Shown here in pieces: positions 1 through 14,640 of a DNA stretch of 14,640 nt (positions within the stretch are counted from its first letter, which is position 1; each line of letters starts with the position of its first letter). The stretch lies in the IMG/VR virus record IMGVR_UViG_2630968342_000015; one strand, given 5' to 3'. The notes beneath the pieces are model-generated. The model searched no databases and was not told the origin of the DNA. It saw only the letters and a program-made list of their open reading frames with translations. The translations under genes were made by a program, and so were the position numbers. This stretch comes from a virus. Its lineage: Duplodnaviria > Heunggongvirae > Uroviricota > Caudoviricetes.

Positions 1-1218
1 ATGAACAAACTGAGCGATACCTTGCTAAGGAAACTTCATGGTAAGCCAGCGGAGAAAAACACGTTTTATAGTGATGGCGGAAACCTGAGCGTGAAATATT
101 TAACATCAGGGAAATTGACCTGGTATTTCACATACAGGGCCGGAACGGGAAGGGAGACACGACCCGAACGCATTAAGCTGGGAAGTTATCCTGATCTGAG
201 CCTGAAAGCAGCCAGGGAAAAAGCCGCACAGTGTCGCACATGGCTGGCTGAGGGGAAAAATCCACGTCATGAGATGAATTACACCGTACAGGAAGCGTTA
301 AAGCCCGTAACGGTTGGCGATGCGCTCACCTACTGGCTTGAGTATTACGTAAAGGAAAACCGCGTGGATTATATCGCCCTGAAAAGGCGACTTAATAATC
401 ACGTAATACAGCAGATTGGTGCTATGCCGCTGGATAAATGCGAGCTACGGCACTGGCTGGCCTGTTTTGACCAGGTGGCAAAGCGAACGCCTGTTACTGC
501 CGGATTCGTGCTACAGGCGTGCAAACAGGCGCTTAAGTTCTGCCGTAGGCGGCGCTATGCAATCAGCAACGTTCTGGACGATCTGAACGTGGCGGACGTT
601 GGGAAAAAACCGGATATAAGCGAACGTGTCTTAAGTAACAAAGAACTTGGCGAATTATTGCAGGCACTGGACAAAAAAATATTCTCCCCTTACTACGTCG
701 CGTTAATCCGCCTCCTGATTGTCTTCGGAGCCAGAACGGTAGAACTGAGGTTATCGGAGATCGGAGAGTGGGATTTTACGGAAATGCTATGGACCGTTCC
801 GAAGGAGCACAGCAAAACGAAGGTCGCAATATTCCGGCCCATACCGGAAGCGATCCTGCCGTTCGTCACGCAGCTGGTGGAGCAGAACAGGCACACGGGC
901 TTATTGCTGGGGGAAGTGAAACAGGAGGCCAGCGTATCGCAGTATGGAAGATTAGCGCACAGGAGGCTTAATCATCCTCACTGGTCACTGCATGACATCC
1001 GGCGCACCTTTACAACCATGCTGAACGATTTAGGCGTTGATCCGCATGTCGTGGAGCAGCTTACAGGCCACCAGATGCCAGGAATGCAGCGAGTTTATAA
1101 TCATTCCCGTTATCTGGATGCTAAACGCAATGCGCTGGATATGTGGACGGAGCGGTTAGGGATACTGGCGGGAACACATGAAAACGTAACCACGCTACCA
1201 GTAGCCAGAAGAAAATAA
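1..1218 (+). CDS. int: P4-family tyrosine integrase (site-specific recombinase)
   Basis: 405-aa ORF. The N-terminus has the P4-type arm-binding pattern (LSDTLLRKL...FYSDGGNLSVKY...W.FTYR...RIKLGSYPDLSLKAAREKA). The catalytic region has ARTVELR, HDIRRT and a C-terminal tyrosine region (RVYNHSRYLD). Confidence 0.95.
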   Translation: MNKLSDTLLRKLHGKPAEKNTFYSDGGNLSVKYLTSGKLTWYFTYRAGTGRETRPERIKLGSYPDLSLKAAREKAAQCRTWLAEGKNPRHEMNYTVQEALKPVTVGDALTYWLEYYVKENRVDYIALKRRLNNHVIQQIGAMPLDKCELRHWLACFDQVAKRTPVTAGFVLQACKQALKFCRRRRYAISNVLDDLNVADVGKKPDISERVLSNKELGELLQALDKKIFSPYYVALIRLLIVFGARTVELRLSEIGEWDFTEMLWTVPKEHSKTKVAIFRPIPEAILPFVTQLVEQNRHTGLLLGEVKQEASVSQYGRLAHRRLNHPHWSLHDIRRTFTTMLNDLGVDPHVVEQLTGHQMPGMQRVYNHSRYLDAKRNALDMWTERLGILAGTHENVTTLPVARRK

Positions 1219-1235
1219 TTTTTTTCGTGTTTTTT

Positions 1236-1251
1236 CAGTATGCGCATACTG
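1236..1251. repeat. 16-bp perfect palindrome CAGTATGCGCATACTG just downstream of int; function unknown
   Basis: Read directly; the sequence equals its own reverse complement. TATGCG recurs at 1254-1259. Confidence 0.9.
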
Positions 1252-1258
1252 GATATGC

Positions 1259-1310
1259 GAACAGATACAACGTGCAACAATGAGCAACAATGCGGAACAA
1301 CTACGAACAA
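1259..1310 (-). repeat. Array of six TTGTTC-like motifs, five of them on a 10-bp phase (minus-strand orientation); candidate protein-binding array
   Basis: The plus strand reads gaacag/atacaa/caacaa/caacaa/gaacaa/gaacaa, with the last five ending at 1270, 1280, 1290, 1300 and 1310. The reverse complement of 1285-1310 matches 6862-6887 at 22 of 26 positions. Confidence 0.7.
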
Positions 1311-1405
1311 GAGGCGAAAAAGTGTACGGATTTATAAGTAGCTGATTTTTAATGTGTTACTGGTTTTTTATACACTAGCGAATCACTCTTTAAATAGCGA
1401 GAAAA

Positions 1406-1440
1406 AAGGCATGAAACAATATTTTATGCCTTTGTATTAA
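1406..1440 (+). terminator. Hairpin downstream of int; probable int terminator, possibly bidirectional
   Basis: AAGGCATGAAA/TTTTATGCCTT forms an 11-bp stem including one G.U that pairs only in plus-strand RNA, with a 5-nt loop. It is followed by TGTATT on plus. On minus it is followed by a better T-run (TTTTCTC). Confidence 0.5.
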
Positions 1441-1502
1441 CATGAATTTAAATGATTTTATCCTGATTATTCCTCTTTCTGTAAACCATGCGACCTCAAC
1501 AT

Positions 1503-1531
1503 TTGCCAACTCTGAATCATCCTGACACAAT
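1503..1531 (+). promoter_or_regulatory. Candidate sigma70 promoter for alpA (TTGCCA-17 bp-CACAAT)
   Basis: Hexamers and 17-bp spacing read by eye, about 60 bp upstream of the alpA GTG. No other support. Confidence 0.3.
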
Positions 1532-1592
1532 CAGACACATCCCAACGCAATAGAACACGAAATAACTCTTTAAGAAACGAAAGGGGGCAATA

Positions 1593-1781
1593 GTGTTAAG
1601 CACTGATCGGTTTATACGTGAAAAAGAATGCGAAAAGCTAACAGGCCTTAGCCGCTCATGCCGCTACCGCCTGGAAAAGGCCGGACAATTCCCATCACGT
1701 CGTAAACTTAGCGGTCGTTCCGTTGGCTGGTCTTTATCCGAGGTTCTGGCCTGGAAGGATAGCTGCAAGGCAGTTCATTAA
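1593..1781 (+). CDS. alpA: AlpA-family (MerR-like wHTH) regulator/excisionase
   Basis: 62-aa ORF with a GTG start 5 nt after AAGGGGG. Matches the Phage_AlpA pattern (EKLTGLSRSCRYRLEKAGQFPSRRKLSGRSVGWSLSEVLAW). Sits downstream of int as in P4-like islands and PICIs. Confidence 0.85.
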   Translation: MLSTDRFIREKECEKLTGLSRSCRYRLEKAGQFPSRRKLSGRSVGWSLSEVLAWKDSCKAVH

Positions 1782-1927
1782 TCACGCTGGCGGCACGCAG
1801 CCGCCACACATCAATCATCTGAACACAGAGCTATAACCATGAAGATTGAATATACGCCAGAACGTGGGCGGGGATTCGTTCGCCCTGGTGAAACTGAAAA
1901 ACAACAAAATTGGGGTTTTTCAGGTAT

Positions 1928-1956
1928 AAAAAAAGCGGCCCCGAAATGGAGCCGCC
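1928..1956 (-). terminator. Rho-independent terminator for the leftward Arc-like operon
   Basis: Minus strand: GCGGC..GCCGC stem extended by CC/GG, followed by TTTTTTT (plus-strand A-run 1928-1934). Lies about 95 nt past the stop of the 2051-2224 ORF. Confidence 0.6.
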
Positions 1957-2050
1957 TTTCTGAACAGATAACCCGCTGCGCCGTTTGTGTGTGTGATCCC
2001 AAACATAAGCACGGGGATGATAGCCGCTATCAGGCTGGTGGGCAATGCAA

Positions 2051-2224
2051 TCAGTCTGGTTCAGTTCGTTGCCATACCTGCAATGAGCGCTTTTCCCTGT
2101 ACTCTTTAAGGAATTGCTCAAGGGCAAAAGCACATGGTGCGAATCTTTCTGATTCATGCTCTATCTTTCTGCGCCGTCTTTTCCGTGCCGGTGATAATGT
2201 TTTGGTCAATTCTTTATCGGTCAT
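2051..2224 (-). CDS. Hypothetical small basic protein (57 aa), second gene of the Arc-like operon
   Basis: ORF with AGGA 7 nt upstream of the ATG at 2224; the ATG at 2239 lacks a well-spaced SD. Has an RKRRRRK stretch and a helical C-terminus (FALEQFLKEYREKRSL). No family recognised. Confidence 0.4.
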   Translation of the reverse strand: MTDKELTKTLSPARKRRRRKIEHESERFAPCAFALEQFLKEYREKRSLQVWQRTEPD

Positions 2225-2281
2225 TGTGTTGTCCTGCATAGCAATGCGCCGTAATACCTCACACCACGGCGCTGATAGTTT

Positions 2282-2473
2282 TTATCCTTTGGGTTCTATA
2301 CCGCGCCGCTTTAGTTCAGTACGCCCCAACTCTTTAAGCCAGTTGGCTAGGCTTATGCCGTCGCTCTGTGCTTCTTTATCGAATTGCTCTTTTAGCTCTG
2401 GAGAAATTCGCATTCTGAATTGTGGGGATTGCCCGTCCCCTTTAGGGCTTTTATCGCGTTTGATTGTTGACAA
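2282..2473 (-). CDS. Arc/Mnt-family ribbon-helix-helix DNA-binding repressor
   Basis: 63 aa, TTG start with AGGTGA 4 nt upstream. SPQFRMRISPELKEQFDKEAQSDGISLANWLKELGRTELKRRGI aligns by eye with P22 Arc (PQFNLRWPREVLDLVRKVAEENGRSVNSEIYQRVMESFKKEGRI). Confidence 0.65.
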   Translation of the reverse strand: MSTIKRDKSPKGDGQSPQFRMRISPELKEQFDKEAQSDGISLANWLKELGRTELKRRGIEPKG

Positions 2474-2518
2474 GTGGTCACCTATTGAATTAGCCTTTCT
2501 ATTGTTAGGTGGTCACCT
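2474..2518. promoter_or_regulatory. Two copies of GTGGTCACCT (palindromic GGTNACC core), each preceded by ATTGTT; candidate operators
   Basis: Copies at 2474-2483 and 2509-2518, 35 bp apart, in the gap between the leftward RHH gene and the rightward operon. The first copy overlaps the RHH SD. Confidence 0.5.
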
Positions 2519-2534
2519 TAACACAAGAGCACTT

Positions 2535-2578
2535 AAAAAAGCAAAGCCCCGCAAGTGTCATTACCACTCGCAGGGCTT
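2535..2578 (-). terminator. Strong minus-strand rho-independent terminator
   Basis: Arms 2545-2557 and 2565-2577 with a 7-nt loop. Plus-strand RNA has two C.A/A.C mismatches that become G.U wobbles in minus-strand RNA, giving 13 uninterrupted pairs. Followed on minus by TTGCTTTTTT. Confidence 0.7.
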
Positions 2579-2616
2579 CTAACCAACAACGTAAACTAGG
2601 AGCCGTTATGGTTGCT
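2535..2616 (-). ncRNA. Candidate ~80-nt cis-antisense RNA covering the SD and ATG of the Icd-like gene (predicted, unverified)
   Basis: The terminator above, plus an extended -10-like TGGTATATG on minus (plus coordinates 2623-2631). The transcript would be complementary to AGGAG (2598-2602) and the ATG at 2608. Confidence 0.3.
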
Positions 2617-2805
2617 GTAAATCATATACCACACCTTGTACACACACAAACGGCCTTTGTGTGGCGTTTTCTGGCACTGAGTGCCGGAGAATCTCAAATC
2701 ATCCACGTAACCGCCTGGACGGAACGCGAAGCGCGTAGCCGTTGCCCGTCCGGTTGTGTTGCTGTATTCGCCGCCCGTATTCGTCAGGGGGGGTGCCATG
2801 CCTGA
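2608..2805 (+). CDS. Icd-like small protein (P4-type host cell division inhibitor family), first gene of the rightward operon
   Basis: ATG 5 nt after AGGAG; 65 aa. The pattern FVWRFLALSAG...IIHVTAWTEREARSRC...VAVFAARIRQ resembles Icd-like proteins of P4-like prophages, from memory. The ORF-track start at 2509 is an upstream extension. Confidence 0.5.
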   Translation: MVAVNHIPHLVHTQTAFVWRFLALSAGESQIIHVTAWTEREARSRCPSGCVAVFAARIRQGGCHA

Positions 2806-3118
2806 CATGACCAATTACCAGTACCTGATTAATCCGCATTTTAACTGTGAGCATGATATTGCTAAAAAGGTTTATTCCGCTGCGGATGGGGCTACTGACA
2901 ATATATCAATGGCTGTTGCGTCAATTGGTAGCCTGATGTGGCATGCGTCAGAAAATGAGGACTATGACGAAAAGGCCATGCGCATTGATATGGGTAATAT
3001 TGGTTTGTTACTGGCAATGCTTGGACATTTTGATATTTCGTTACGGTGCACCATTGGAAATGCCACAGATGCATTAAATGCTATAAAGAAAGCGAATACT
3101 GATTCAAATCGGGGATAA
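2798..3118 (+). CDS. Hypothetical protein (106 aa)
   Basis: ATG at 2798 follows a G-rich SD and overlaps the previous stop. Ordinary protein-like composition; no family recognised. Confidence 0.6.
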   Translation: MPDMTNYQYLINPHFNCEHDIAKKVYSAADGATDNISMAVASIGSLMWHASENEDYDEKAMRIDMGNIGLLLAMLGHFDISLRCTIGNATDALNAIKKANTDSNRG

Positions 3119-3124
3119 ATAATC

Positions 3125-3424
3125 ATGAGAACGTATTTATCTGGCTTTACTGCCAGCGGTTATGCACACCCCAAAATTATCCCCGGCGCTATTTATCTGG
3201 ATAAGAACGGTAACAGAGTAACGGTAAAAGAACTGATGTTTGACCGTGTGTATTTTATTCGTGATGGCTATTCATTTCATAGTTCGCTGAACGTGGAGAT
3301 CTTTATTAGCAGATTCCGGCGGGAAATCCCGCTTTCCAGAAATAACCATGTGTCATGTATGGATGTTGATAAAAAACTACAGGAACTGAAAAACATGATT
3401 GCCGCGTGGAGAGAGCAGAAATGA
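3125..3424 (+). CDS. Hypothetical protein, possibly DUF4222-like
   Basis: 99-aa ORF. GAIYLDKNGNRVTVKELMFDRVYFIRDGY resembles small DUF4222 proteins found upstream of primases in enterobacterial islands (recall only). Confidence 0.55.
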   Translation: MRTYLSGFTASGYAHPKIIPGAIYLDKNGNRVTVKELMFDRVYFIRDGYSFHSSLNVEIFISRFRREIPLSRNNHVSCMDVDKKLQELKNMIAAWREQK

Positions 3425-5238
3425 AAAAAGCGCCAAATTTAAAACACCAGCCGCGTGACAAAATGACGGAAGTCATCATTTTTGCGGGTAGTGATGCGTG
3501 GGCACATGCGAAGCAGTGGCAGGAACAGGACGGGCGACTGGCTGGCGATAACGTGCCACCTGTCTGGCTTGGAGAGCAACAACTTGCCGAACTGGACAAC
3601 CTGCAAATCGTACCGGACGGACGCTATCGCGTGCGTCTCTACCAGGCGGGGTTATTGCGTCCGGGGCTTGTTAATACCATCGGGCAGAAACTGGCAGCGG
3701 CAGGTGTCAGGGATGCTGATTATTACCCTGAAGGAATGCACAGCCAGAAACGGGAGAACTGGCGCGAATATCTGGAACGTGAGCGGGGAGAGCTGGCGGA
3801 AAAGAAAAAGGTAGTTGAACTGCCTGTAAAGAAAAAAGAGCGGGTAAAAGACGATAACGCTTCATCACTGGCGCTTAACCAGATGGGAGCAAGTCAACGC
3901 GGCGAAGTTCTCCTGGCACATTATGGCGGTGAACTGGCGATTCATGCTGACTCTGACACTGTTCACTATTACAACGGCGTTGTATGGGAGCCAGTACAGG
4001 ATAAAGAATTACAGCGAGCTATGGCGCAGATTTTCATTGATGCGGAGATCAGCTATTCGCAGAACGCCATTAAATCGGCGGTCGATACCATGAAGTTAAG
4101 TTTGCCTGTAATGGGGAATACAGCCCGTAACCTGATTGGATTCAGTAACGGTGTTTTTGATACCCGGACAGGCGATTTTCGGGAGCATAACAAAAACGAC
4201 TGGTTGTTAATTGCCAGTGAATTACCTTTCAGCCCACCAGCAGAGGGGGAAACGCTGGCAACACATGCGCCGAATTTCTGGAAGTGGTTACGCCGTTCGG
4301 TGGCTGAGAATGACCGCAAGGCGGATCGCGTACTGGCTGCATTATTCATGGTGCTGGCGAACCGGTACGACTGGCAGTTATTCATTGAGGTAACAGGTCC
4401 AGGGGGAAGTGGTAAAAGCGTGATGGCGGAGATTTGCACCATGCTGGCGGGTAAGGCCAACACGGTATCGGCAAGCATGAAGGCGCTGGAAGATGCCAGG
4501 GAACGCGCGTTAGTGGTTGGCTTTTCGCTGATTATCATGCCGGATATGACCCGTTACGCTGGTGATGGCGCAGGAATTAAGGCCATTACAGGCGGTGACA
4601 AGGTGGCAATCGACCCGAAGCATAAAGCCCCCTACTCAACACGCATTCAGGCGGTAGTGTTGGCGGTGAACAATAACGCCATGTCATTCAGTGACCGCAG
4701 CGGGGGGATTTCACGTCGTCGGGTGATATTCAATTTTTCGGAGGTTGTACCGGAAAACGAACGCGACCCCATGCTGGCAGAAAAAATAGAAGGAGAGCTG
4801 GCGGTTGTGATTCGCCACCTGCTTACTCGTTTTTCTGACCAGGACGCAGCTAAACGCCTGCTGTATGAGCAGCAGAAATCAGAAGAAGCTCTGGTGATAA
4901 AACGCGAGGGCGATTCGCTGGTGGACTTCTGCGGCTATCTCATGTCGTCGGTAATGTGTGATGGTCTGTTAGTGGGTAATGCCGAAATTATTCCGTTCAG
5001 TCCGCGCAGGTATCTTTATCACGCCTATCTGGCATATATGAGGGCACACGGATTCGGTAAACCTGTAACACTGACGCGCTTCGGTAAAGATATGCCGGGG
5101 GCAATGGCGGAATATGGCAGGGAGTATATGAAACGGAAAACGAAGCACGGTTTGCGTTCAAACGTGACACTGACGGAGGAATCAGAAGACTGGATGCCAT
5201 CATGTGTATCGGTCACTAATGACGATAGCAAAAATTAA
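3421..5238 (+). CDS. P4-alpha/D5-type primase-helicase (SF3 helicase with a C-terminal origin-binding region)
   Basis: ATG at 3421 (GGAGAG 7 nt upstream) overlaps the previous stop. Walker A GPGGSGKS at 4396-4419 and Walker B-like LIIMPD. Overall resembles the P4-family primase C-terminal domain. An iteron origin lies immediately 3'. Confidence 0.9.
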   Translation: MKKAPNLKHQPRDKMTEVIIFAGSDAWAHAKQWQEQDGRLAGDNVPPVWLGEQQLAELDNLQIVPDGRYRVRLYQAGLLRPGLVNTIGQKLAAAGVRDADYYPEGMHSQKRENWREYLERERGELAEKKKVVELPVKKKERVKDDNASSLALNQMGASQRGEVLLAHYGGELAIHADSDTVHYYNGVVWEPVQDKELQRAMAQIFIDAEISYSQNAIKSAVDTMKLSLPVMGNTARNLIGFSNGVFDTRTGDFREHNKNDWLLIASELPFSPPAEGETLATHAPNFWKWLRRSVAENDRKADRVLAALFMVLANRYDWQLFIEVTGPGGSGKSVMAEICTMLAGKANTVSASMKALEDARERALVVGFSLIIMPDMTRYAGDGAGIKAITGGDKVAIDPKHKAPYSTRIQAVVLAVNNNAMSFSDRSGGISRRRVIFNFSEVVPENERDPMLAEKIEGELAVVIRHLLTRFSDQDAAKRLLYEQQKSEEALVIKREGDSLVDFCGYLMSSVMCDGLLVGNAEIIPFSPRRYLYHAYLAYMRAHGFGKPVTLTRFGKDMPGAMAEYGREYMKRKTKHGLRSNVTLTEESEDWMPSCVSVTNDDSKN

Positions 5239-5250
5239 ACTTATGGAATA

Positions 5251-5475
5251 ACTGTTCACCACTGTTCACCCTGTCATAAATATCTTTTGTATCAGTATGT
5301 TATAGGGTGAACAGTTATTTATGAACTGTTCACCAAACTATTCACTGTTCACCTTTTTGATTGTTTATTGAGCTTCAAGGGTGAACAGTGGTGAATAGTT
5401 GGTGAATAGTTTTTGTGAAACTGTTCACCCCTTAATATTATGAATTAAAAGATAAAATATCAAAAGGTGAACAGG
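5251..5475. repeat. Origin of replication: about 11 copies of the 10-bp iteron ACTGTTCACC in both orientations around AT-rich DNA
   Basis: Plus-oriented copies at 5251, 5261, 5325, 5344 and 5420, with a degenerate one at 5337. Inverted copies (GGTGAACAGT/GGTGAATAGT) at 5306, 5380, 5390, 5401 and 5466. AT-rich stretch at 5430-5465. Confidence 0.8.
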
Positions 5476-5525
5476 TGAAGGGTTAAAACGCAAAAATTTT
5501 AATTTACTGCTGTGAGATAAAGCCT

Positions 5526-5771
5526 ATGACAGCGAAGCACACAAAAAAATCACAATCGCACGCCCTTGATTTGACGGAACACTGGTTAAGGGTGTCGATA
5601 AAAATCATCGACCGCAACGCCGGGGAAGGATATGCGAAAGCACATCCCGAACTGATTAGCTCATTCATGACAACGGCAGCTGCAAACTTTGCCACGCTGA
5701 CAGAACGGGAGATTGCCGAAGCGGAACAGGTGACAACCATCAACGTTAAAACCGGAGAGCAGACAGCATGA
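5526..5771 (+). CDS. Hypothetical protein (81 aa)
   Basis: ORF whose stop overlaps the ssb start (ATGA). No family recognised. Confidence 0.55.
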   Translation: MTAKHTKKSQSHALDLTEHWLRVSIKIIDRNAGEGYAKAHPELISSFMTTAAANFATLTEREIAEAEQVTTINVKTGEQTA

Positions 5772-6178
5772 CAGCACAGATAGCAGCTTACGGGCGGCTG
5801 GTGGACGACCCGCAGGTAAAACAGACCAGTAAGGGCACACCGATGACGCTGGCGCGTATGGCGGTATCGTTGCCATGTAGTCAGGCGCAGGATGGGCAGG
5901 CGACGTTATGGCTATCGGTCATCGCATTTGGTAAGCAGGCCGACTTCCTGGCTAAACATCAAAAAGGCGACGTTGCCAGCGTATCCGGCACGATGCAGGT
6001 CAGCCAGTGGACCGGACAGAACGGGGAAACGCGGCAGGGTTATCAGGTTATTGCAGACAGCGTAATCAGTGCCCGTGCGGCACGTCCTGGCGGGAACAGA
6101 CGCAAAACCACAGGCACACAGGGTAATCAGCCACCAGCGGGAGGCGATGACCCTTACGGTGACGGTATTCCGTTCTGA
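5768..6178 (+). CDS. ssb: Single-stranded DNA-binding protein
   Basis: 136 aa. OB-fold-like N-terminus (YGRLVDDPQVKQTSKGTPMT...ATLWLSVIAFGKQA), Gly/Pro/Gln-rich linker, and the canonical acidic C-terminal tip DDPYGDGIPF. Confidence 0.85.
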   Translation: MTAQIAAYGRLVDDPQVKQTSKGTPMTLARMAVSLPCSQAQDGQATLWLSVIAFGKQADFLAKHQKGDVASVSGTMQVSQWTGQNGETRQGYQVIADSVISARAARPGGNRRKTTGTQGNQPPAGGDDPYGDGIPF

Positions 6179-6188
6179 GGGGGTGGCG

Positions 6189-6461
6189 ATGGTACATGAC
6201 CGCATAGCGGAAGAACTCGAGGCGAAAGGCTTTTACCGGAGGGCGGCGGCGCGATGGGGTGAAGTCATGCTGCTGGTGGAGACAGACAAGGAACGGCATC
6301 AGGTTACGATGCGACGGCTGGAATGTTCCAGGAAGGCACAGAAGCCACCGGAGCCGCCGGATAACTTCGGAGACCTGAGAAAGGCAGTAGATCGCACTTA
6401 TGCTGAAATGGGTATAGATGGTGTAAGCGATGAAATATGGCGTAATTACCCAGACAGCTAA
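6189..6461 (+). CDS. PerC-family-like transcriptional regulator
   Basis: ATG at 6189 after GAGGGGG; 90 aa. The N-terminal AEELEAKGFYRRAAARWGEVM resembles the PerC/Pch family signature (recall only). Confidence 0.5.
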   Translation: MVHDRIAEELEAKGFYRRAAARWGEVMLLVETDKERHQVTMRRLECSRKAQKPPEPPDNFGDLRKAVDRTYAEMGIDGVSDEIWRNYPDS

Positions 6462-8260: not shown

Positions 8261-8270
8261 CAGCATACAG

Positions 8271-8299
8271 AAGGGGCTTAAAAGCCCCTTTAGTGTTTT
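8271..8299 (+). terminator. Hairpin with an interrupted U-tract after the capsid gene; probable partial terminator or attenuator
   Basis: AAGGGGCT-TAAA-AGCCCCTT (8-bp stem) followed by TAGTGTTTTA. Confidence 0.5.
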
Positions 8300-8314
8300 A
8301 TGGGTGAAAAAATT

Positions 8315-8872
8315 ATGAAGAGTATGGAAATCCGGTCATCGGAAATCACCACCAGCGCCAGCAACACGCTTACAGGCTACGTTGTTCGCTGGGATAAGCT
8401 TTCAGAGCTGCTATGGGGGGAGTTTTACGAAAAATTCCAGCGGGGAGCGTTTACTGAATGGCTTGCGGCGGGTAATGACGTTCGCGGCCTGTATGAGCAT
8501 GACCACAGCATGTTGCTGGGGCGTACCCGTTCCGGCACGCTGAAACTGGAAGAGGACGAAACAGGGTTACGCTTTGAACTGACCCCACCGGATACCAGTA
8601 CAGGGCGCGACGTTATCGAACTGGTTAAGCGTGGGGACATCTCGGGGATGAGCTTTGGCTTTCGCTCCCGTAAGGATGTATGGGATACCACAACAGATCC
8701 ATGCGTGCGCACCGTGCTGGTGGCGGAACTGTACGAAATTACCGTTACATCGGTACCGGCTTACCCTGATTCCGGCGTGGAGCTGGCCCGCCGTTCCCTG
8801 TATGAGCAGCACCCCGAAAAAATGCCGCGTGCGGATAATCGCCGCTGGTGGGTGGATTTAGCGGGGGTGTGA
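8315..8872 (+). CDS. HK97-family prohead protease (peptidase S78/U35)
   Basis: Family-typical pattern MEIRS...LTGYVVRWDKLSE...FQRGAF...DVRGLYEHD...LGRTRSGTLKLEEDETGLRFELTPPDTSTGRDVIELVKRGDISGMSFGF. The start is uncertain (8300, 8315 or 8324). Confidence 0.9.
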   Translation: MKSMEIRSSEITTSASNTLTGYVVRWDKLSELLWGEFYEKFQRGAFTEWLAAGNDVRGLYEHDHSMLLGRTRSGTLKLEEDETGLRFELTPPDTSTGRDVIELVKRGDISGMSFGFRSRKDVWDTTTDPCVRTVLVAELYEITVTSVPAYPDSGVELARRSLYEQHPEKMPRADNRRWWVDLAGV

Positions 8873-8873
8873 T

Positions 8874-10085
8874 ATGTGGCTTTTCAGAAGAAAAAAAGAG
8901 CAGCGCAGCATGACGCTTGATGAATTTATGGCGCTGGCTGGCACATCGAACACGGGGGCGGGTGAGTACGTATCATCGGGGACAGCGGAATCACTGCCCG
9001 CCGTCATGAACGCCGTGACGGTCATCTCTGAGGCGGTGGCTACCATGCCGTGTTACCTGTACCTGGTACGCAATGAGAAGGGGAAGGAGGCCCGCGAGTG
9101 GCTTGATTCTCATCCGGTCGATCACATCCTCAACGAGCGCCCGAACGCGTGGCAGACTCCCTACCAGTTTAAGCGAATGATGATCCGCCACTGCCTGTTA
9201 AACGGTAATGCTTATGCGGTGATTCAGTGGGGGCGTGATGGTTTTCCGGTGGCTTTACATCCTTACCCGCCGCAGTCGGTGAACGTGGAGCAGACAGGCG
9301 AACACAACTGGCGCTACTGCATCACTGACGCCTACACCGGAAACACCCGCAACTATTTACCGTGGGAGGTTCTCCACCTTCGTTACTCCACGGATGACGG
9401 TTTTATGGGGCGCTCACCTGTAACCATCTGCCGCGAATCGCTGGGGCTTGGGCTGGCCCAACAACGCCACGGCGCGAGCGTGATGCGTGATGGCATGATG
9501 GCGGCAGGGGTTATCACGTCAGGCGAATGGCTGGACGGCGTGAAGGGCAAACAGGCATTAGCCGCACTGGAACGCTACAAAGGGGCCAGAAACGCCGGAA
9601 AAACGCCCATCCTTGAAGGGGGTATGAGCTATCAGCAGCTGGGCATGAGTAATCAGGATGCTGAATGGCTGGCCTCCCGTCGCTTCACCATTGAAGACAT
9701 CGCCCGAATGTTCAACGTCTCGCCGATTTTTCTGCAGGAATACAGCAACAGCACCTACAGCAATTTCAGCGAGGCAAGCCGCGCATTTCTCACCATGACA
9801 ATGCGCCCGTGGCTGGCGAACTTTGAGCAGCAGATAAAAAACGCCCTGCTGGTGGCCTCGCCTGTACCTGGTATCCGGTATCAGGTGGAGTTTGACAGCG
9901 CGGACCTGTTACGGGCCACACCTGGCGAACGCTTTGCCACCTATGAACGCGGCATCAAATCCGGCGTTATGTGCCCGAACGAAGCCCGCGAACGTGAAGG
10001 GCTGTCCCCGCGTGATGGTGGTGATGAGTTCAGCCAGGCATGGAAACAGGAAGTAAAAATCAGCGAGGGAGAAAAACCGGAATGA
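8874..10085 (+). CDS. HK97-family portal protein
   Basis: 403-aa ORF with the size and overall sequence character of Phage_portal family proteins. SD GGGGG lies 6 nt upstream. Sits within the head module. Confidence 0.85.
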   Translation: MWLFRRKKEQRSMTLDEFMALAGTSNTGAGEYVSSGTAESLPAVMNAVTVISEAVATMPCYLYLVRNEKGKEAREWLDSHPVDHILNERPNAWQTPYQFKRMMIRHCLLNGNAYAVIQWGRDGFPVALHPYPPQSVNVEQTGEHNWRYCITDAYTGNTRNYLPWEVLHLRYSTDDGFMGRSPVTICRESLGLGLAQQRHGASVMRDGMMAAGVITSGEWLDGVKGKQALAALERYKGARNAGKTPILEGGMSYQQLGMSNQDAEWLASRRFTIEDIARMFNVSPIFLQEYSNSTYSNFSEASRAFLTMTMRPWLANFEQQIKNALLVASPVPGIRYQVEFDSADLLRATPGERFATYERGIKSGVMCPNEAREREGLSPRDGGDEFSQAWKQEVKISEGEKPE

Positions 10086-10420
10086 ACATAGGGCGACTGC
10101 GTGACAGGGTAACGATTCAGACCCTGAAACAGACCAGGGATATAACCGGCGAAATACTCGAAACGTGGGAGGACGGTCACACACTCTGGGCAAGCGTGAA
10201 CATGATCAGCAGCAAGGAGGCCATTTCATCGGGTGCAGAGCTGGCGATTGGTACCGTAAGGATCTGGATACGGTACCGGAAGGACATCAATGCCACCAGC
10301 CGGATAAAGGTCAGTACGGGGCCGCTGGCGGGGCGTGTACTGAATATCATCGGGCAGCCGCTGCCGGATGCCGCCAGGACACGCCTTGAAATTCTTTGTC
10401 GTGAGGGCGCGGAAAAATGA
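10082..10420 (+). CDS. Head-closure / head-tail adaptor protein (SPP1 gp16-like, Phage_H_T_join)
   Basis: ATG at 10082 overlaps the portal stop (ATGA). MNIGRLRDRVTIQ...WEDGHTLWASV...IRYRKDI...ILCREG is the typical family pattern. Confidence 0.8.
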   Translation: MNIGRLRDRVTIQTLKQTRDITGEILETWEDGHTLWASVNMISSKEAISSGAELAIGTVRIWIRYRKDINATSRIKVSTGPLAGRVLNIIGQPLPDAARTRLEILCREGAEK

Positions 10421-10713
10421 CAGAAGAACTTATCACCCTGGAAGAAGTGAAACTCCATTGCCGCATCGATGGCGACGAGGAAGACCAGTTAATCAGCGGA
10501 TACATCGCCGCATCGCTTGAGGCGTGCCAGATACACATAGGCAGGCGCTTTGATGACGGGCTGGAGTTCACGCCAGCCATAAAGATTGGCTGCATGATGT
10601 TTATCGCTCACCTGTATGAAAATCGCCAGATTGTCGCGGATAACGCAAAAACACGCGTACCCATGACGATTGGTGCACTCTGGACGGCTTACCGTGATGT
10701 GGGGGTGTACTGA
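10417..10713 (+). CDS. gp6-like head-tail connector protein (Phage_connect_1)
   Basis: ATGA overlap with the previous gene. ITLEEVKLHCRIDGDEEDQLISGYIAASLEACQIHIGRRF is the family-typical N-terminus. Confidence 0.8.
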   Translation: MTEELITLEEVKLHCRIDGDEEDQLISGYIAASLEACQIHIGRRFDDGLEFTPAIKIGCMMFIAHLYENRQIVADNAKTRVPMTIGALWTAYRDVGVY

Positions 10714-11153
10714 TGCCGTGGCAACCATTAAGACGATGCACAGAACCAGGCTGTAACAGGCGCGTGAAGTCCGGCAAGTGTGAGGAGCACAGGCGGGCGG
10801 CATGGCGTGCAGAGGATGCCAGACGAGGACACCGCCGCGCGCGTGGGTACTCCAGACAGTGGGACAAATACCGCGCCATGTATCTGAGTAAAAACCCGTT
10901 ATGCGTGCGATGCCTTGAGAAGGGGATATATACGCCCGCCGTGGTGGTGGATCACATTATCCCGATTAATGGCGGTGATGATGTTCTCTTCTGGCCCGAA
11001 TGGAACCATCAGCCATTGTGCCAGGCGTGCCATAACCAGAAAACGAAATGGCTTGATCCGGCAACAAAAAGCAAGCGTGCCGCAGGTGGATTTCGTGAAG
11101 AGGAAGAACGGGCCGCTAACCGCAATAACTGGATGTATGACGCTGATGAATGA
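10713..11153 (+). CDS. Phage HNH endonuclease (packaging-associated)
   Basis: N-terminal Cys cluster CTEPGCNRRVKSGKCEEH and HNH core DHIIPINGGDD...NHQPLCQACHNQKT. Sits upstream of terS as in HK97-like cos phages. Confidence 0.9.
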   Translation: MPWQPLRRCTEPGCNRRVKSGKCEEHRRAAWRAEDARRGHRRARGYSRQWDKYRAMYLSKNPLCVRCLEKGIYTPAVVVDHIIPINGGDDVLFWPEWNHQPLCQACHNQKTKWLDPATKSKRAAGGFREEEERAANRNNWMYDADE

Positions 11154-11319
11154 GCGGGAACAAAACCGCCTTATCCGTGGACTTATAAGGCAGCGTGACG
11201 CATGGAAGACACAGGAAACAGGGCATAAAGATAAAGCGTCAGGACGCGCAGAACGCATCACAGCGAAGCGATTAACCGACCGTGACCGCGAGGTTATGGA
11301 ATGTTTCCGCAATCGCTGA
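11146..11319 (+). CDS. Possible small charged protein (57 aa) in the HNH-terS gap
   Basis: ATG at 11146 overlaps the HNH stop (ATGAATGA). It is the only open frame across 11153-11319. No clear SD and no family recognised. Confidence 0.3.
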   Translation: MNEREQNRLIRGLIRQRDAWKTQETGHKDKASGRAERITAKRLTDRDREVMECFRNR

Positions 11320-11441
11320 TGAGGCTGTATGACGGGGTGGGGGGCGTTTTCAGGACAAACCCGACCCCGCCGGGCACCGACCGCCTCCTCAAATTTTTAT
11401 GCACGGGAATTTTTTGAAAAATAATCTGACGAAAAATAAGC
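11320..11441. other. Candidate cos region
   Basis: Lies between HNH and terS, the HK97-like position for cos. G-rich (11331-11346) and C-rich (11361-11389) segments are partly complementary and are followed by AT-rich DNA. Positional inference only. Confidence 0.35.
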
Positions 11442-11798
11442 ATGGCAAGACCACCGAAAGCCCCCGCCTACCTGGATGACATCGCCGTGAAGCAGTGGCG
11501 GGAAAAATCGCGGCAGCTTGCGGAACGGGGAGACCTGACCCCCGCCGACTGGAGCAATCTGGAACTGTATTGTGTCAACTACTCCATTTACCGGAAAGCC
11601 GTCGCAGACCTTGCGGCGCGCGGGTTCAGCATTGTTAACAGTCAGGGCGGCGAGAGCAGAAACCCCGCATTAAGCGCGAAATCAGACGCTGAAAGGGTGA
11701 TGATAAAAATGGCCTCCTTGCTCGGTTTTGACCCGATAAGCCGCCGTAAAAACCCACCGGAAACAGAAGAAGAGGACGAGCTTGACCGCCTGGAATAA
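11442..11798 (+). CDS. terS: Terminase small subunit, P27 family
   Basis: Family-typical pattern PPKAPAYLDDIAVKQWREKSRQLAERGDLTPADWSNLELYCVNYSIYRKA...NPALSAKSDAERVMIKMASLLGFDPISRRK. Confidence 0.85.
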   Translation: MARPPKAPAYLDDIAVKQWREKSRQLAERGDLTPADWSNLELYCVNYSIYRKAVADLAARGFSIVNSQGGESRNPALSAKSDAERVMIKMASLLGFDPISRRKNPPETEEEDELDRLE

Positions 11799-13443
11799 GT
11801 ACGCAGAAGACGTAAAAACGGGCAAAATTCAGGCCTGTAAACGGTTAAAACAGGCCGTTAAACGGTACTTTTCGGACCTTAAAAGCCCCCTTTACACGTT
11901 CGATCGTGAGGTTGTGGATCGGTTTATTGCCTTTTCCAGGGTGTGCCCGCACGTAAAAGGGCCGATGCGTGGCAGACCCATTGAGCTGGAGCCGTGGCAG
12001 CAGTTCGCCTTTGCGTGCATCCTCGGCTTTAAGGTTAAGGCCACCGGACGGCGCAAATATACGAGCGCCTTTATCGAAGTGCCGCGCAAAAATGCTAAAT
12101 CAACGACCGCCGCGATTCTGGCTAACTGGTTTCTGATTATGGAGAACGGTCAGCAGGATATTTACACCGCAGCGGTGAGCCGTGACCAGGCGAGGATCGT
12201 ATTTGATGATGCGCGTCAGATGTGCATTTTATCCCGACCGTTACGCAGGCGGGTGAATATTCAGGCGCATAAGGTGATACACCCGAAAACCAACAGCCTG
12301 TTAAAGCCGCTGGCAGCAAAAGCGGCAACTATCGAGGGCACAAACCCCAGTCTTTCTATCGTGGACGAATACCACCTACACCCCGACAACGGCGTATATT
12401 CTGCGCTTGAACTGGGGATGGGGGCACGTCCCGAAGGGCTGTTATTTGCCATTACCACATCGGGAAGTAACGTCGTTTCAGCCTGTAAGCAGCATTATGA
12501 TTATTGCTGCCAGATCCTGGACGGCGAAGAGGTTAACGAATCGCTTTTTGTGCTGATTTACGAACTGGACGACGAAAACGAGGTTGATGATCCGGAGATG
12601 TGGATAAAGGCGAACCCTAATATCGATGTTTCCGTGGATCGTGAAAAACTGGCCTCAACCATTCAGAAAGCGCGGGGTATTCCGTCGCAATGGGTGGAGA
12701 TGATGACAAAGCGATTTAATATCTGGTGTCAGGGGACTACCCCGTGGATGGGTAATGGTGCATGGGCTGAGTGTGCCGGAACGTTCACGGAGGAAGATTT
12801 ACACGGTCAGGAGTGTTACGCGGGGCTGGACTTATCATCAACCAGCGATATTTCCAGCGTGTGCTATGCCTTTCCGGTCGGTAAAACCATTATGATGATT
12901 TCCCGTCATTATCTGCCGGAGTTCCAGCTACAGAACCCCGCCAATAAAAACCGCGCTGTCTATCGTCAGTGGGCTAAAGCAGGCTGGATACGCACAACGC
13001 CTGGCGACTGCATTGATTACGACCGGATCAGAGATGACATCATGCAGGACGCGGAGAAATTTAATATCAGGCTGGTGGGCTTTGATACGTGGAACGCCAC
13101 GCATCTCAGAACGCAATTACAGGGGGCAGGTTTTGAGGTGGAGCCGTTCCCGCAAACCTACCTCAGATTCAGTCCGGCGGCGAAATCGTTCGAAGTTTTT
13201 GTTAACCGCAGGGTGATTGTGCATCGTGGCGATCCGGTGTTGTCCTGGTCGATGAGTAACGTCGTGATGCAGAGTGACGCGAACGCCAATATCAAGCCGA
13301 ACAAGAAAAAATCACCGAACAAGATAGACCCGAGCGTGGCGGCGCTGATGGCGTTTGGTACATTCCAGGCAGAGCATGAGGATTTTGCTTTTGATATAAG
13401 CGACAGCCACCGCCAGAAACTGGAAGAATTTAGCGGGGTGTAA
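11782..13443 (+). CDS. terL: Terminase large subunit (Terminase_1 family)
   Basis: 553 aa. TTG start with GAGGA 5 nt upstream; no ATG or GTG is available between the upstream in-frame stop and 11782. Walker A-like VPRKNAKST and Walker B-like LSIVDEYH. Confidence 0.9.
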   Translation: MTAWNKYAEDVKTGKIQACKRLKQAVKRYFSDLKSPLYTFDREVVDRFIAFSRVCPHVKGPMRGRPIELEPWQQFAFACILGFKVKATGRRKYTSAFIEVPRKNAKSTTAAILANWFLIMENGQQDIYTAAVSRDQARIVFDDARQMCILSRPLRRRVNIQAHKVIHPKTNSLLKPLAAKAATIEGTNPSLSIVDEYHLHPDNGVYSALELGMGARPEGLLFAITTSGSNVVSACKQHYDYCCQILDGEEVNESLFVLIYELDDENEVDDPEMWIKANPNIDVSVDREKLASTIQKARGIPSQWVEMMTKRFNIWCQGTTPWMGNGAWAECAGTFTEEDLHGQECYAGLDLSSTSDISSVCYAFPVGKTIMMISRHYLPEFQLQNPANKNRAVYRQWAKAGWIRTTPGDCIDYDRIRDDIMQDAEKFNIRLVGFDTWNATHLRTQLQGAGFEVEPFPQTYLRFSPAAKSFEVFVNRRVIVHRGDPVLSWSMSNVVMQSDANANIKPNKKKSPNKIDPSVAALMAFGTFQAEHEDFAFDISDSHRQKLEEFSGV

Positions 13444-13456
13444 TGAGGTCAGCAGC

Positions 13457-13738
13457 ATGACAGAAGCCGAAATAACGGGATTAATCCGCCGCGTTGCCGG
13501 AATCAGCCAGCAGGCTGACGAACAGGCCACGCAGCCGGACAGCGTGACAGCCGAAAACTATGCGCGTGTTGTTGCTGAGGTGATGCGCCGTGATGGTATA
13601 GAACTTAATGGCGTGGATATGCGCAACATACGAACCAGAGTTCTTGAGTTGCTGGCCTACCGTCGCCGCGTGGAGATGTATCGGGAGAAGGAGAAAATAA
13701 CGTACCACTGGAAGAAGCCGGAGCGGTTGCGGCGGTAA
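13457..13738 (+). CDS. Hypothetical protein (93 aa), last gene of the packaging operon
   Basis: GAGGT 7 nt upstream of the ATG. Protein-like composition; no family recognised. Confidence 0.6.
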   Translation: MTEAEITGLIRRVAGISQQADEQATQPDSVTAENYARVVAEVMRRDGIELNGVDMRNIRTRVLELLAYRRRVEMYREKEKITYHWKKPERLRR

Positions 13739-14031
13739 CTGGTTGATATTCCCGACGGACCAAAAATGGGTGGCTACATCCCTCGCTTCTGAGGACTGTT
13801 AACAAGCTGCCTGAAAGACAGTCACAAACTACGAAATTTTCGCAGTTTAATTAATGATCAGCTTAATCGCTAACCCGCTGATATTTTCGGAAACCTCAAT
13901 TTGAGGAAGTCGGCGCGGTAACTCGCTGAACTTTAAGCAAAGTGCAAAATTGCGCTTGCTGAATAATCATTATGATTACGCAGATGATTAAGGAATGACC
14001 GAAGGCGGAAATTCGCCTGTGGTTAATGGGG

Positions 14032-14051
14032 GAGTTGCAGATCTGCAACTC
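14032..14051. repeat. 20-bp perfect palindrome GAGTTGCAGATCTGCAACTC
   Basis: Read directly; the sequence equals its own reverse complement. Confidence 0.9.
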
Positions 14052-14071
14052 GACCATGAAACTACGGAAAC

Positions 14072-14142
14072 TACCCGTAGTTTGGGTAGTAAGAGTAACA
14101 CCCAGATTTTGGGTCTTACTCGTGATACCCAAATTTGGGGTA
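14072..14142. repeat. Three 17-bp palindromic sites (T)ACCC-N7-GGGT(A) with centres exactly 27 bp apart; operator-like or tandem RNA hairpins
   Basis: TACCCgtagtttGGGTA 14072-14088, cACCCagattttGGGTc 14099-14115, TACCCaaatttgGGGTA 14126-14142. Centres at 14080, 14107 and 14134. Confidence 0.75.
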
Positions 14143-14363
14143 TCAGTGGCAACCATAACGACTTTCGTTACGGTTGATGCTTTTACCCCATTGGGGGAAA
14201 GGTATTACGATAATCATAACACCTACCGAACAGGTAAAGCCCACCAGCCTGATTAACGTTTAACCGGAAAAAAATTCCGGTAGGTGGGGATCCCCATATC
14301 GACATTAACGCCCCTCATGAATTGGTGCGCTTCCCCCTGGAAAGATGATCCGCCTGTATATTT

Positions 14364-14398
14364 CTTGTGTCTATTTGTTCCACGTTGTTTCATACAGT
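14364..14398 (+). repeat. Three TTGT-core motifs on a 10-bp phase near the right end; homolog of 6862-6896
   Basis: TTGTGT 14364, TTGTTC 14374, TTGTTT 14384. Shares an exact 15-mer with 6872-6886. Confidence 0.65.
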
Positions 14399-14407
14399 GC
14401 ACCGAAC

Positions 14408-14430
14408 GGTGTAGTCACTGGTGTAGTCAT
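14408..14430 (+). repeat. Tandem direct repeat GGTGTAGTCA x2 (12-bp period); candidate integrase arm-type sites
   Basis: Copies at 14408-14417 and 14420-14429, about 70-90 bp from the presumed junction. Confidence 0.4.
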
Positions 14431-14473
14431 TTTGCGATTTTTGGCACTTTTTGCGGTGAAAATTATTTAATTA

Positions 14474-14486
14474 AATCAACGTGTTA
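14474..14486 (+). promoter_or_regulatory. IHF consensus match (WATCAANNNNTTR) with an A/T-rich upstream tract
   Basis: AATCAACGTGTTA matches every consensus position. It is preceded by AAAATTATTTAATTAA and lies about 15-25 bp from the presumed junction. Confidence 0.45.
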
Positions 14487-14640
14487 TGTGAAATAAGTTA
14501 TATATAACAGCAATAAATAATGCGAGAATAAACGGCACGATGATCTCGGCGGCAAAACGGATACCGCAGAGAATAATGACCAGCATTCCCAACATAATGA
14601 CGATTTTTAGGCCATTGAGCGTGATGATCGGCTTTGCCAT
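14476..14640 (-). pseudogene. tqsA: Truncated 5' fragment of a tqsA/ydgG-like AI-2E (PerM) family permease gene, disrupted by the island
   Basis: The minus-strand ATG at 14640 gives [46 protein letters not shown], which matches my recollection of the E. coli TqsA N-terminus. It then diverges (YNLFHITR) to a stop at 14476-14478. Too short (54 aa) to appear in the ORF track. Confidence 0.55.

Follow-up and report, generated by a model that had tools for sequence, protein, structure and literature searches.

The window, by which we mean the whole 14,640-nucleotide stretch of IMG/VR record IMGVR_UViG_2630968342_000015, is very probably a capsid-forming PICI (cf-PICI) of the EcCIEDL933 lineage, integrated at nucleotides 129-137 of tqsA in Escherichia coli G1/2, whose chromosome is 100% identical to it. 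A sequence-only reading had already placed it in this class; that reading is correct, but what it describes is already known. Membership was judged by the criteria of Alqurainy et al. 2022 (bioRxiv 10.1101/2022.09.08.507074), the virome criteria of He et al. 2025 (10.1101/2025.02.11.637232) and the 11 core components of SatelliteFinder (PMC10085698). Every cf-PICI feature that can be tested from sequence was found, with 11 of 11 core genes in canonical order and the packaging genes in the published Proteobacterial order of capsid, protease, portal, adaptor and connector, followed by hnh, terS and terL. The major capsid protein (MCP) matches all 385 residues of chain B in PDB 9GYI, described by the authors of the structure as the cryo-EM T=4 capsid of EcCIEDL933. 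EcCIEDL933 builds its own small capsids, is packaged in lysates of helper capsid mutants and needs only tails from the helper.

Boundaries and gene content

Comparison of G1/2 with the uninterrupted tqsA of K-12 identified the att core as a 9-bp overlap, ATAACAGCA, which is duplicated at both ends of the island. The island interrupts tqsA and measures 14,699 bp from att to att, with pntB and tqsA' on its left and 'tqsA and mdtJ on its right. The window had been called complete, and attR does lie inside it; attL and the first four codons (12 nt) of int (RefSeq CDS WP_000085276.1), however, lie 12-195 bp upstream of its first base, and the window is therefore slightly short of complete.

Profile searches of Pfam and NCBIfam bear out the int, alpA, SF3-type replication gene, ssb and head and packaging set named in the earlier reading, all on the + strand and all above curated Pfam thresholds. 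Its list overlooked perC, the icd-like and DUF4222 genes and the 60-aa ORF at 11137-11319 (Table 1). Between the mapped att boundaries we find no genes beyond those in the window; tail and lysis genes, which might have lain outside the window but inside the att sites, are absent there, as are their remnants and pseudogenes. The lack of tail, lysis and cI/Cro genes in the window also stands: searches of Pfam, PHROGs, NCBIfam and PADLOC assign none of its remaining ORFs to a repressor, endolysin, holin or tail family.

Table 1. Features of the island in window coordinates, with protein identity to the EDL933 copy. DNA and per-protein comparisons used the O157:H7 island, and EDL933 was confirmed to carry the same proteins.
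Feature	Position	Strand	Evidence or remark	Identity to EDL933
attL core ATAACAGCA	-195 to -187 (locus L001 7805-7813)		outside window
Tyrosine integrase (int)	1-1218	+	Arm-DNA-bind_3 1.4e-18, Phage_integrase 2.9e-16 (Pfam)	91.2%
TTGTT units, 10-bp phase, int-alpA spacer	1276-1310	-	candidate regulator site
alpA, activator of satellite cycle	1593-1781	+	Pfam Phage_AlpA 1.9e-17	96.8%
247-aa accessory gene, variable slot 3' of alpA	1839-2582	+	function not assigned	100%
Icd-like small protein	2608-2805	+	RefSeq annotation; PHROGs phrog_29966, phrog_1743
106-aa hypothetical and DUF4222 genes, start of swapped replication module	2798-3424	+	phrog_15327 (given for the pair)
DUF4222 gene	3125-3424	+	Pfam DUF4222 7.2e-17
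Pri-Rep, D5/P4-alpha-type SF3 helicase	3421-5238	+	D5_N 1.3e-13, DUF5906 8.3e-11, Pox_D5 6.6e-13
Iteron-type replication origin	5252-5474		GGTGAAYAG repeats
81-aa hypothetical gene and ssb (ssb 5768-6178)	5526-6178	+	Pfam SSB 4.2e-17	SSB 100%
PerC-family regulator (perC)	6189-6461	+	Pfam PerC 9.1e-45	100%
74-aa hypothetical gene	6586-6810	+	phrog_1957	100%
Phased TTGTT array, 5' of capsid operon	6862-6886	+
HK97-fold MCP	7103-8260	+	Phage_capsid 2.6e-61	100%
Prohead serine protease	8300-8872	+	Peptidase_S78 4.4e-48	98.9%
Portal protein	8874-10085	+	Phage_portal 9.1e-91	99.3%
Head-tail adaptor (head closure protein)	10082-10420	+	Phage_HCP 5.2e-23; TIGR01563; PDB 2KZ4 'putative head-tail adaptor' 5.3e-70	96.4%
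Head-tail connector	10417-10713	+	Phage_connect_1 8.4e-12; TIGR01560	100%
HNH endonuclease, packaging cofactor	10713-11153	+	Pfam HNH 1.8e-8	99.3%
60-aa ORF, homologue of EcCIEDL933 gene 1792	11137-11319	+	phrog_3173	100%
Candidate cos site	11320-11441		122-bp G+C-rich gap, HNH/1792 genes to terS
Small terminase (TerS), P27 family	11442-11798	+	Terminase_4 1.3e-23; TIGR01558	100%
Large terminase (TerL)	11782-13443	+	TerL_ATPase 3.4e-25, TerL_nuclease 1.8e-49	98.0%
93-aa hypothetical gene	13457-13738	+	phrog_1561	87%
Non-coding right arm	13739-14503
TTGTT array; tandem GGTGTAGTCA(C/T)	14375-14389; 14408-14430		candidate Int arm-type sites
attR core ATAACAGCA	14504-14512		comparison with empty K-12 tqsA

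Head and packaging module

The prototype EcCIEDL933 lies between roxA and phoQ in E. coli O157:H7 EDL933 (NZ_CP008957.1, about 1,680,100-1,695,600) and shares its architecture and gene order with the window. Alignment to this island, proposed as a check in the earlier reading, gives 97.7% DNA identity over the ssb-to-packaging block (window 5586-13750), and the MCP is not the only protein carried over unchanged (Table 1). The adaptor differs at four residues (V10I, D20A, I21M and A97V) and TerL at 11; such substitutions might affect activity or which tails are used. The adaptor and connector had been proposed to determine which helper tails the satellite can use, which is right for the EcCIEDL933 family, where the pair sets tail specificity by experiment (He et al. 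2025, 10.1101/2025.02.11.637232). The 60-aa ORF corresponds to gene 1792 when genes are counted from the MCP gene as 1786, and an EcCIEDL933 1792 mutant is transferred very poorly. DNA of cf-PICIs has cohesive ends, and the cos site of the island probably lies in the gap before terS: the related 16.5-kb record LR881103.1 has its termini at the homologous spot, directly 3' of the conserved block GGGGTGGGGGnGGTTTTCAGGAC.

Classical E. coli PICIs such as EcCICFT073 and EcCIED1a share with the island the int-alpA-pri-rep left half and the alpA-dependent, helper-triggered induction expected of it, but they lack genes for capsid, portal, connector and TerL and use helper-made capsids for packaging. 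A classical PICI or a satellite like P4, remodelling capsids encoded by its helper for its own use, would account for the P4-family integrase, the Vis-like AlpA and the P4-alpha-like Pri-Rep of the window. We give this explanation almost no credence: the capsid, protease, portal, adaptor, connector and TerL are all products of the island itself, own head genes and TerL being forbidden or discriminating components in the SatelliteFinder PICI model, and no ORF matches families of the Sid, Psu, Delta or Rpp type in Pfam or PHROGs.

HK97 and its relatives (including the helper HK106) have in common with the island the HK97-fold capsid, S78 protease, portal, gp6-like connector and head-closure protein, as well as the HNH-dependent cos packaging by TerS and TerL that is predicted for it. 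These phages, however, are about 40 kb with T=7 capsids, against about 14.7 kb for the island and T=4 for the prototype capsid, and unlike them the island lacks genes for tails, lysis and immunity. Identities between cf-PICI proteins and their phage homologues are low (Alqurainy et al. 2022, bioRxiv 10.1101/2022.09.08.507074). None of 50,697 records is a full-size phage with DNA similarity to the packaging module. Only two matches covering more than 40% of the query carry gene annotation, LR881103.1 and Pasteurella phage Pmp8, both of 15-16.5 kb; among the remaining hits are short fragments without annotation and, from a 106.5-kb record of a Klebsiella phage, its terminal 4 kb. Among 5,426 complete E. 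coli genomes, about 410 carry 80% or more of the packaging module, and at least 80% of the window is present in 70 complete genomes. The HK97-type families of the head and packaging genes in the window would also fit a decayed prophage of the HK97 kind, from which deletion removed the genes for tail, lysis and immunity, rather than an autonomous satellite; we consider this explanation highly improbable. Apart from the absence of DNA-level similarity to full-size phages, this explanation is opposed by the clean att boundaries with their 9-bp core and no tail or lysis remnants, by the PICI-typical int-alpA-Pri-Rep module of the left half, by a compact architecture that recurs, 97-100% identical, across many unrelated strains and two att sites, and by the T=4 satellite capsids that the identical capsid protein forms in the prototype.

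Candidate regulatory repeats and the replication module

In the prototype, an island with a mutated alpA is neither induced nor transferred (Alqurainy et al. 2022, bioRxiv 10.1101/2022.09.08.507074). The phased TTGTT array between int and alpA may be a site of AlpA action; its position is kept in EcCIEDL933 and in a tqsA-inserted element of E. coli O26. The array before the capsid operon, directly preceded by a terminator-like hairpin at 6821-6838, is likewise kept in EDL933 (locus L004 27883-27907). The motif TTGTTNNNNNTTGTT has six matches against 0.10 expected, every one non-coding. The TTGTT arrays as a group persist in EcCIEDL933, and the arm-type repeats are retained there as the variant GGTGTAGTTA/GGTGTAGTCA. 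The right non-coding arm as a whole has only partial similarity to that of the prototype. Small ORFs in this arm match no PHROGs family. A 76-nt imperfect repeat of the right arm (family D2) also occurs 5' of int, beyond the window.

The replication module (window 2802-5585) sets the island apart from EcCIEDL933: a D5-type Pri-Rep of 605 aa with GGTGAAYAG iterons takes the place of a 710-aa DUF927 Rep, and no DNA similarity to the prototype is seen across 2802-3379. The iteron origin noted earlier beside the replication gene is well founded, with 10 copies where 0.14 would be expected; they occur in both orientations, and none lies outside the origin interval. Of the label SF3 primase-helicase, the helicase part agrees with the D5/SF3-type families; the N-terminal 165-170 aa or so match no Pfam family and 'primase' is therefore a family label only. 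The score against TIGR01613 (P4-family primase C-terminal) is 97 bits, below the cut-off of 108.7.

The same Pri-Rep allele and origin, together with the tqsA site, an Int differing by three residues and the packaging module, are found in cf-PICIs of O26 and O111 EHEC, for example E. coli O26 RM10386 (NZ_CP028126.1, 2294717-2309535), which is 97-98.5% identical across 97% of the window. The slot 3' of alpA holds a truncated ORF and a YlcI/YnfO gene in O26, whereas G1/2 has the EDL933 allele, the 247-aa ORF, whose product finds no match in Pfam, PHROGs or PADLOC.

A cf-PICI by descent might nevertheless be inactive in G1/2, through the replication swap, the adaptor and TerL substitutions or the want of a compatible helper. 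The Pri-Rep allele other than that of the prototype, the four and 11 substitutions and the fact that no helper phage is identified for G1/2 would fit such a copy, which we consider unlikely. None of the 21 ORFs is truncated, each having the length of its counterpart in the prototype or in the copy from O26, the att core duplication is intact, and the Pri-Rep allele and origin occur at 80% coverage or more in 426 complete genomes, which argues for selection.

Proposed life cycle and place among E. coli PICIs

By homology with EcCIEDL933, we infer that the G1/2 copy would be induced, excised, encapsidated and transferred as follows. A helper phage would turn on alpA, and AlpA would activate the island, which Int would then excise. 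The D5-type Pri-Rep and the island SSB would replicate it from the iteron origin, while capsid protein, S78 protease and portal would assemble into small T=4 heads. With help from the 60-aa product, TerS, TerL and HNH would cut cos and package one unit of about 14.7 kb, and adaptor and connector would complete the head. Finished heads might be released without a tail or attached to siphovirus tails from the helper, and after injection Int would insert the island into tqsA at ATAACAGCA.

The island also departs from EcCIEDL933 in size (14.7 kb against 15.4-15.5 kb) and in its att core, which lies inside tqsA here and in EDL933 is about GGACATATTT between roxA and phoQ; 27 of the 36 differences between the two integrases fall in residues 1-142. 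The exchange of the replication module and the retargeting of the integrase are what modular recombination ordinarily produces among E. coli PICIs. Judged by its sequence, the island of G1/2 is a close mosaic sibling of the characterised prototype, an ordinary and already understood element.

Class membership and boundaries

The element is a mosaic closely related to EcCIEDL933, the prototype capsid-forming phage-inducible chromosomal island (cf-PICI) of E. coli O157:H7 EDL933; it is common in E. coli and already known. All seven features of cf-PICIs that can be tested in sequence are present, and the interpretation offered by the sequence-only reading, that of a complete, tail-less cf-PICI, is correct as to class. 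An integrase at one end is combined with an AlpA-type regulator (Pfam). The element has its own capsid, prohead protease and portal, adaptor and connector proteins of the Phage_HCP and Phage_connect_1 families, and a replication module consisting of a D5_N/DUF5906/Pox_D5 protein and an adjacent iteron array. By coordinates, the morphogenesis genes are followed by hnh-terS-terL, which matches the published Proteobacterial order, and none of the 21 ORFs, all of them scanned, belongs to a tail module or is a lysis gene. The distance between the ATAACAGCA cores is 14,699 bp, within the att-bounded size of about 10-18 kb given for the class (He et al. 2025, 10.1101/2025.02.11.637232, section 39).

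The window is 100% identical to positions 2,491,600-2,506,239 of E. coli G1/2 (NZ_CP060083.1), where the element interrupts the AI-2 exporter gene tqsA, with pntAB to the left and mdtJI to the right. Each junction holds one copy of the 9-bp overlap ATAACAGCA, equivalent to nt 129-137 of the uninterrupted K-12 tqsA; attR occupies 14504-14512 and attL lies 187-195 bp to the left of base 1. The two parts of the gene are found at 14497-14640 (minus strand) and at 6907-7812 of L001, the G1/2 chromosome stretch that includes the flanks, and the break falls after nt 137 of 1035. tqsA is presumably inactivated both in G1/2 and in the O26/O111 EHEC that share the insertion. A scan for tRNA genes found none in the window; the element is therefore not integrated at a tRNA.

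To call the window complete is a slight overstatement: it holds nearly the whole element, but attL, the sequence upstream of int and four initial int codons fall outside it. Since the 195 bp of the element beyond the window comprise only attL, the int upstream/promoter region and, on the other strand, a hypothetical ORF of 60 aa to which no function is assigned, no tail or lysis genes, whose discovery would have counted against the sequence-only reading, are found between the att boundaries.

Gene content

ORF listing and Pfam scans resolve the genes of the window into one dense plus-strand array, and the NCBIfam assignments concur with Pfam for the named families. Every family recognized from the sequence is thereby recovered on one strand; the 60-aa counterpart of EcCIEDL933 gene 1792, mutation of which severely reduces transfer of the prototype, had been overlooked. 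The other ORFs are the 247-aa gene, an icd-like gene, a DUF4222 gene, the PerC-family gene, and genes for 106-, 81-, 74-, 60- and 93-aa products. Among these, searches of Pfam, PHROGs, NCBIfam and PADLOC detected no tail, holin, endolysin, repressor or defence family; PADLOC, run on all unassigned ORFs and on the replication protein (Pri-Rep), likewise returned no defence family. Pfam searches extended to E = 5 found no match for the Pri-Rep N-terminus or the 247-, 60- and 93-aa ORFs. The PerC-family protein is identical to the EDL933 copy; a passage of PMC11773190, citing Porter et al. 2005, has LEE1 promoter fusions unaffected by the EcCIEDL933 PerC-like protein.

Features of the element and segments compared with the O157:H7 island (window positions unless marked L001)
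Feature	Position	Strand	Remarks
int	1-1218	+	Pfam Arm-DNA-bind_3 1.4e-18, Phage_integrase 2.9e-16
alpA	1593-1781	+	Pfam 1.9e-17
247-aa gene	1839-2582	+	downstream of alpA; no family match in any library
Replication protein (Pri-Rep, 605 aa)	3421-5238	+	D5_N, DUF5906, Pox_D5
ssb	5768-6178	+	Pfam
PerC-family regulator	6189-6461	+	between ssb and capsid operon
HK97-type major capsid protein (MCP), 385 aa	7103-8260	+	Phage_capsid 2.6e-61
S78 prohead protease	8300-8872	+	Peptidase_S78 4.4e-48
Portal	8874-10085	+	Phage_portal 9.1e-91
Head-closure/adaptor protein	10082-10420	+	Phage_HCP 5.2e-23; matches PDB 2KZ4, 'putative head-tail adaptor'
gp6-like connector	10417-10713	+	Phage_connect_1 8.4e-12
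HNH	10713-11153	+	Pfam
60-aa ORF, counterpart of EcCIEDL933 'gene 1792'	11137-11319	+	numbering derived from MCP = 1786
P27-family TerS	11442-11798	+	Pfam
TerL	11782-13443	+	Pfam
Phased TTGTT array	1276-1310	-	int-alpA spacer
Phased TTGTT array	6862-6886	+	immediately upstream of capsid gene
Phased TTGTT array	14375-14389	+	att arm
Phased TTGTT array	L001 7899-7922		upstream of int, other att arm, outside window
Left segment	4-2801		94.3% DNA identity to O157:H7 island
Replication segment	2802-5585		essentially unrelated to O157:H7 island, except 71% over 3380-3786
ssb-to-packaging segment	5586-13750		97.7% DNA identity to O157:H7 island
Right non-coding arm			patchy, 75-90% DNA identity to O157:H7 island

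Satellite or phage

Three other classes were considered and rejected. A classical PICI is ruled out by the presence of portal, adaptor, connector and TerL, all of which serve as exclusion markers for that class in SatelliteFinder (PMC10085698). A P4-like satellite is ruled out as well, no ORF having a Sid-, Psu- or Delta-type family and the head gene set being complete. A temperate HK97-like prophage is ruled out by the lack of a tail module, a lysis cassette and cI/Cro-type immunity within the att boundaries. A decayed prophage might also present head genes without tails, but the att duplication is clean, no gene remnants are left, and the compact architecture is conserved at two different att sites, which excludes decay as a better reading than a cf-PICI.

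Comparison of the packaging module with 50,697 phage records revealed no full-size phage with detectable DNA similarity. Two 'phages' of 15-16.5 kb, vB_KppS-Ant (LR881103.1) and Pasteurella Pmp8, account for the gene-annotated matches covering more than 40% of the query. Among the remaining matches are a terminal 4-kb stretch of the 106.5-kb Klebsiella phage record PQ569648.1, whose ORFs are unnamed, and short unannotated fragments. LR881103.1 (Escherichia phage vB_KppS-Ant, 1-16548), deposited as a phage, carries TerS, TerL, int, primase, capsid, protease, portal, connectors and HNH, a gene content that looks like that of a cf-PICI. After TerL it also has a 765-aa gene labelled 'tail length tape measure protein', possibly an accessory gene that has been given the wrong annotation.

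Replication module

The iteron origin proposed from the sequence is borne out by ten copies of GGTGAAYAG, in both orientations and all within 5252-5474 (0.14 expected), which adjoin the replication protein gene. The label of primase-helicase given to the encoded protein holds for its SF3-helicase part; the primase part is a family label only, because about 165 N-terminal residues have no recognisable family. Whereas the EcCIEDL933 replication protein is a 710-aa DUF927 protein, the present element has another allele, in which a D5-type Pri-Rep of 605 aa comes with iterons of its own. This allele occurs at 80% coverage or more in 426 complete E. coli genomes and is widespread independently of the rest of the element, which fits the published finding that E. 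coli PICIs draw on several interchangeable Pri-Rep and AlpA alleles. An Rfam search at a permissive E-value gave no real RNA family, only sub-threshold matches to miRNA models that are due to inverted repeats in the origin.

Relationship to the prototype and mosaicism

The prototype island was located in an O157:H7 strain and then in EDL933 itself, where it lies between roxA and phoQ and its proteins have the same accessions. All 385 residues of the MCP are identical to those of chain B of PDB 9GYI, the EcCIEDL933 capsid model, whose T=4 shell measures 47.5 nm (He et al. 2025). Identity to EcCIEDL933 is also 100% for the connector, TerS, SSB, PerC and the 247-, 74- and 60-aa ORFs; it is 99.3% for portal and HNH, 98.9% for the protease, 98.0% for TerL, 96.8% for AlpA, 96.4% for the adaptor (V10I, D20A, I21M, A97V) and 91.2% for Int. 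ORF lengths equal those of their counterparts throughout.

Int differs at 36 of 409 residues, and 27 of the 36 changes fall in residues 1-142, which span the arm-binding domain and the first part of the core-binding domain. This cluster accompanies a switch of the core site, from approximately GGACATATTT in the roxA/phoQ spacer for EcCIEDL933 to ATAACAGCA in tqsA, and the integrase is retargeted relative to the EDL933 copy. An O26 EHEC strain carries a cf-PICI with the same tqsA insertion, Int and Pri-Rep, in which another gene follows alpA. The 247-aa gene that occupies this slot in the present element matches the EDL933 allele at 100%, against about 94% for the DNA on either side, and the O26 element has a replacement for it. 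The 247-aa gene is a recombination patch in a known variable slot. The G1/2 copy is thus a mosaic in which the tqsA backbone carries the EDL933 allele at that position. Of 5,426 complete E. coli genomes, 70 match the window over 80% or more of its length, and 410 match the packaging module to the same extent.

Non-coding repeats

TTGTT units spaced exactly 10 bp apart (TTGTTNNNNNTTGTT, 6 matches against 0.10 expected) form arrays at only four spots, all non-coding, and the same four are occupied in the EDL933 and O26 elements. The significance is confined to the 14-mer and the phased pattern: the short motif TTGTTYCAYG, with one mismatch allowed, has 6 matches against 4.8 expected and is not above chance. 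One and the same regulator of the island might conceivably, if on balance doubtfully, bind all the arrays; AlpA, in a role like that of P4 Vis or lambda Xis, would be the most plausible candidate. Should this be so, one helper-induced protein would couple excision, auto-activation of alpA and the switching-on of the capsid/packaging operon. No comparable cis-regulatory map was met in the portions of the cf-PICI literature covered by searches on topics other than binding sites.

Tandem GGTGTAGTCA(C/T) repeats adjoin each att-proximal TTGT-type array, at 14408-14430 and L001 7942-7964, within a 76-nt imperfect direct repeat common to both arms; EcCIEDL933 has the variant GGTGTAGTTA/GGTGTAGTCA. 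They look like candidate Int arm-type sites. A G+C-rich gap of 122 bp (11320-11441) separates the 60-aa ORF from terS, and the termini of LR881103.1 map to a homologous point at about 11356, after the conserved 23-nt block GGGGTGGGGGnGGTTTTCAGGAC. The cos site likely lies within this gap. Two terminator-like hairpins of 24 nt (6465-6488 and 6819-6842), 96% identical and of the form ACAGCCGGAG(A/C)AATCCGGCTTTTT, flank the 74-aa ORF, one after perC and the other before the capsid-operon control region. Scans for promoter and terminator consensus sequences gave no enrichment over shuffles, and single hairpins are descriptive only.

Life cycle and significance

Helper-triggered, alpA-dependent excision and replication have been demonstrated for EcCIEDL933 only, and HK106 tail mutants established that the prototype needs helper tails only for infectivity. 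By homology with that island, a helper phage would induce alpA, AlpA would activate the island and Int would excise it, and Pri-Rep and SSB would replicate it from the iteron origin. MCP, protease and portal would assemble T=4 heads, into which TerS, TerL and HNH, together with the 60-aa product, would package one unit after cutting at cos. Adaptor and connector would complete the head, and the heads would leave tail-less or joined to helper siphovirus tails. Given the identity of the MCP to the 9GYI protein, we infer that this copy makes small capsids of its own and packages only itself. The proposal that the adaptor/connector pair sets tail choice is correct and already published (He et al. 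2025, section 12). Since this element and EcCIEDL933 have the same connector, and adaptors that are 96% identical, the partner tails are predicted to be of the HK106 type.

The description of cf-PICIs dates from 2022-2023. The capsid structure has been published, as has the part that adaptor and connector play in tail choice, and the capsid protein of the prototype is identical to that of this element, which carries little weight as a discovery. Its value is one of annotation: a tqsA-disrupting cf-PICI is placed in a commensal human isolate and in O26/O111 EHEC, with a prediction, drawn from protein alignment, of the tails it would use. The packaging module of the prototype is in circulation on at least two backbones that differ in integrase/att and replicon.
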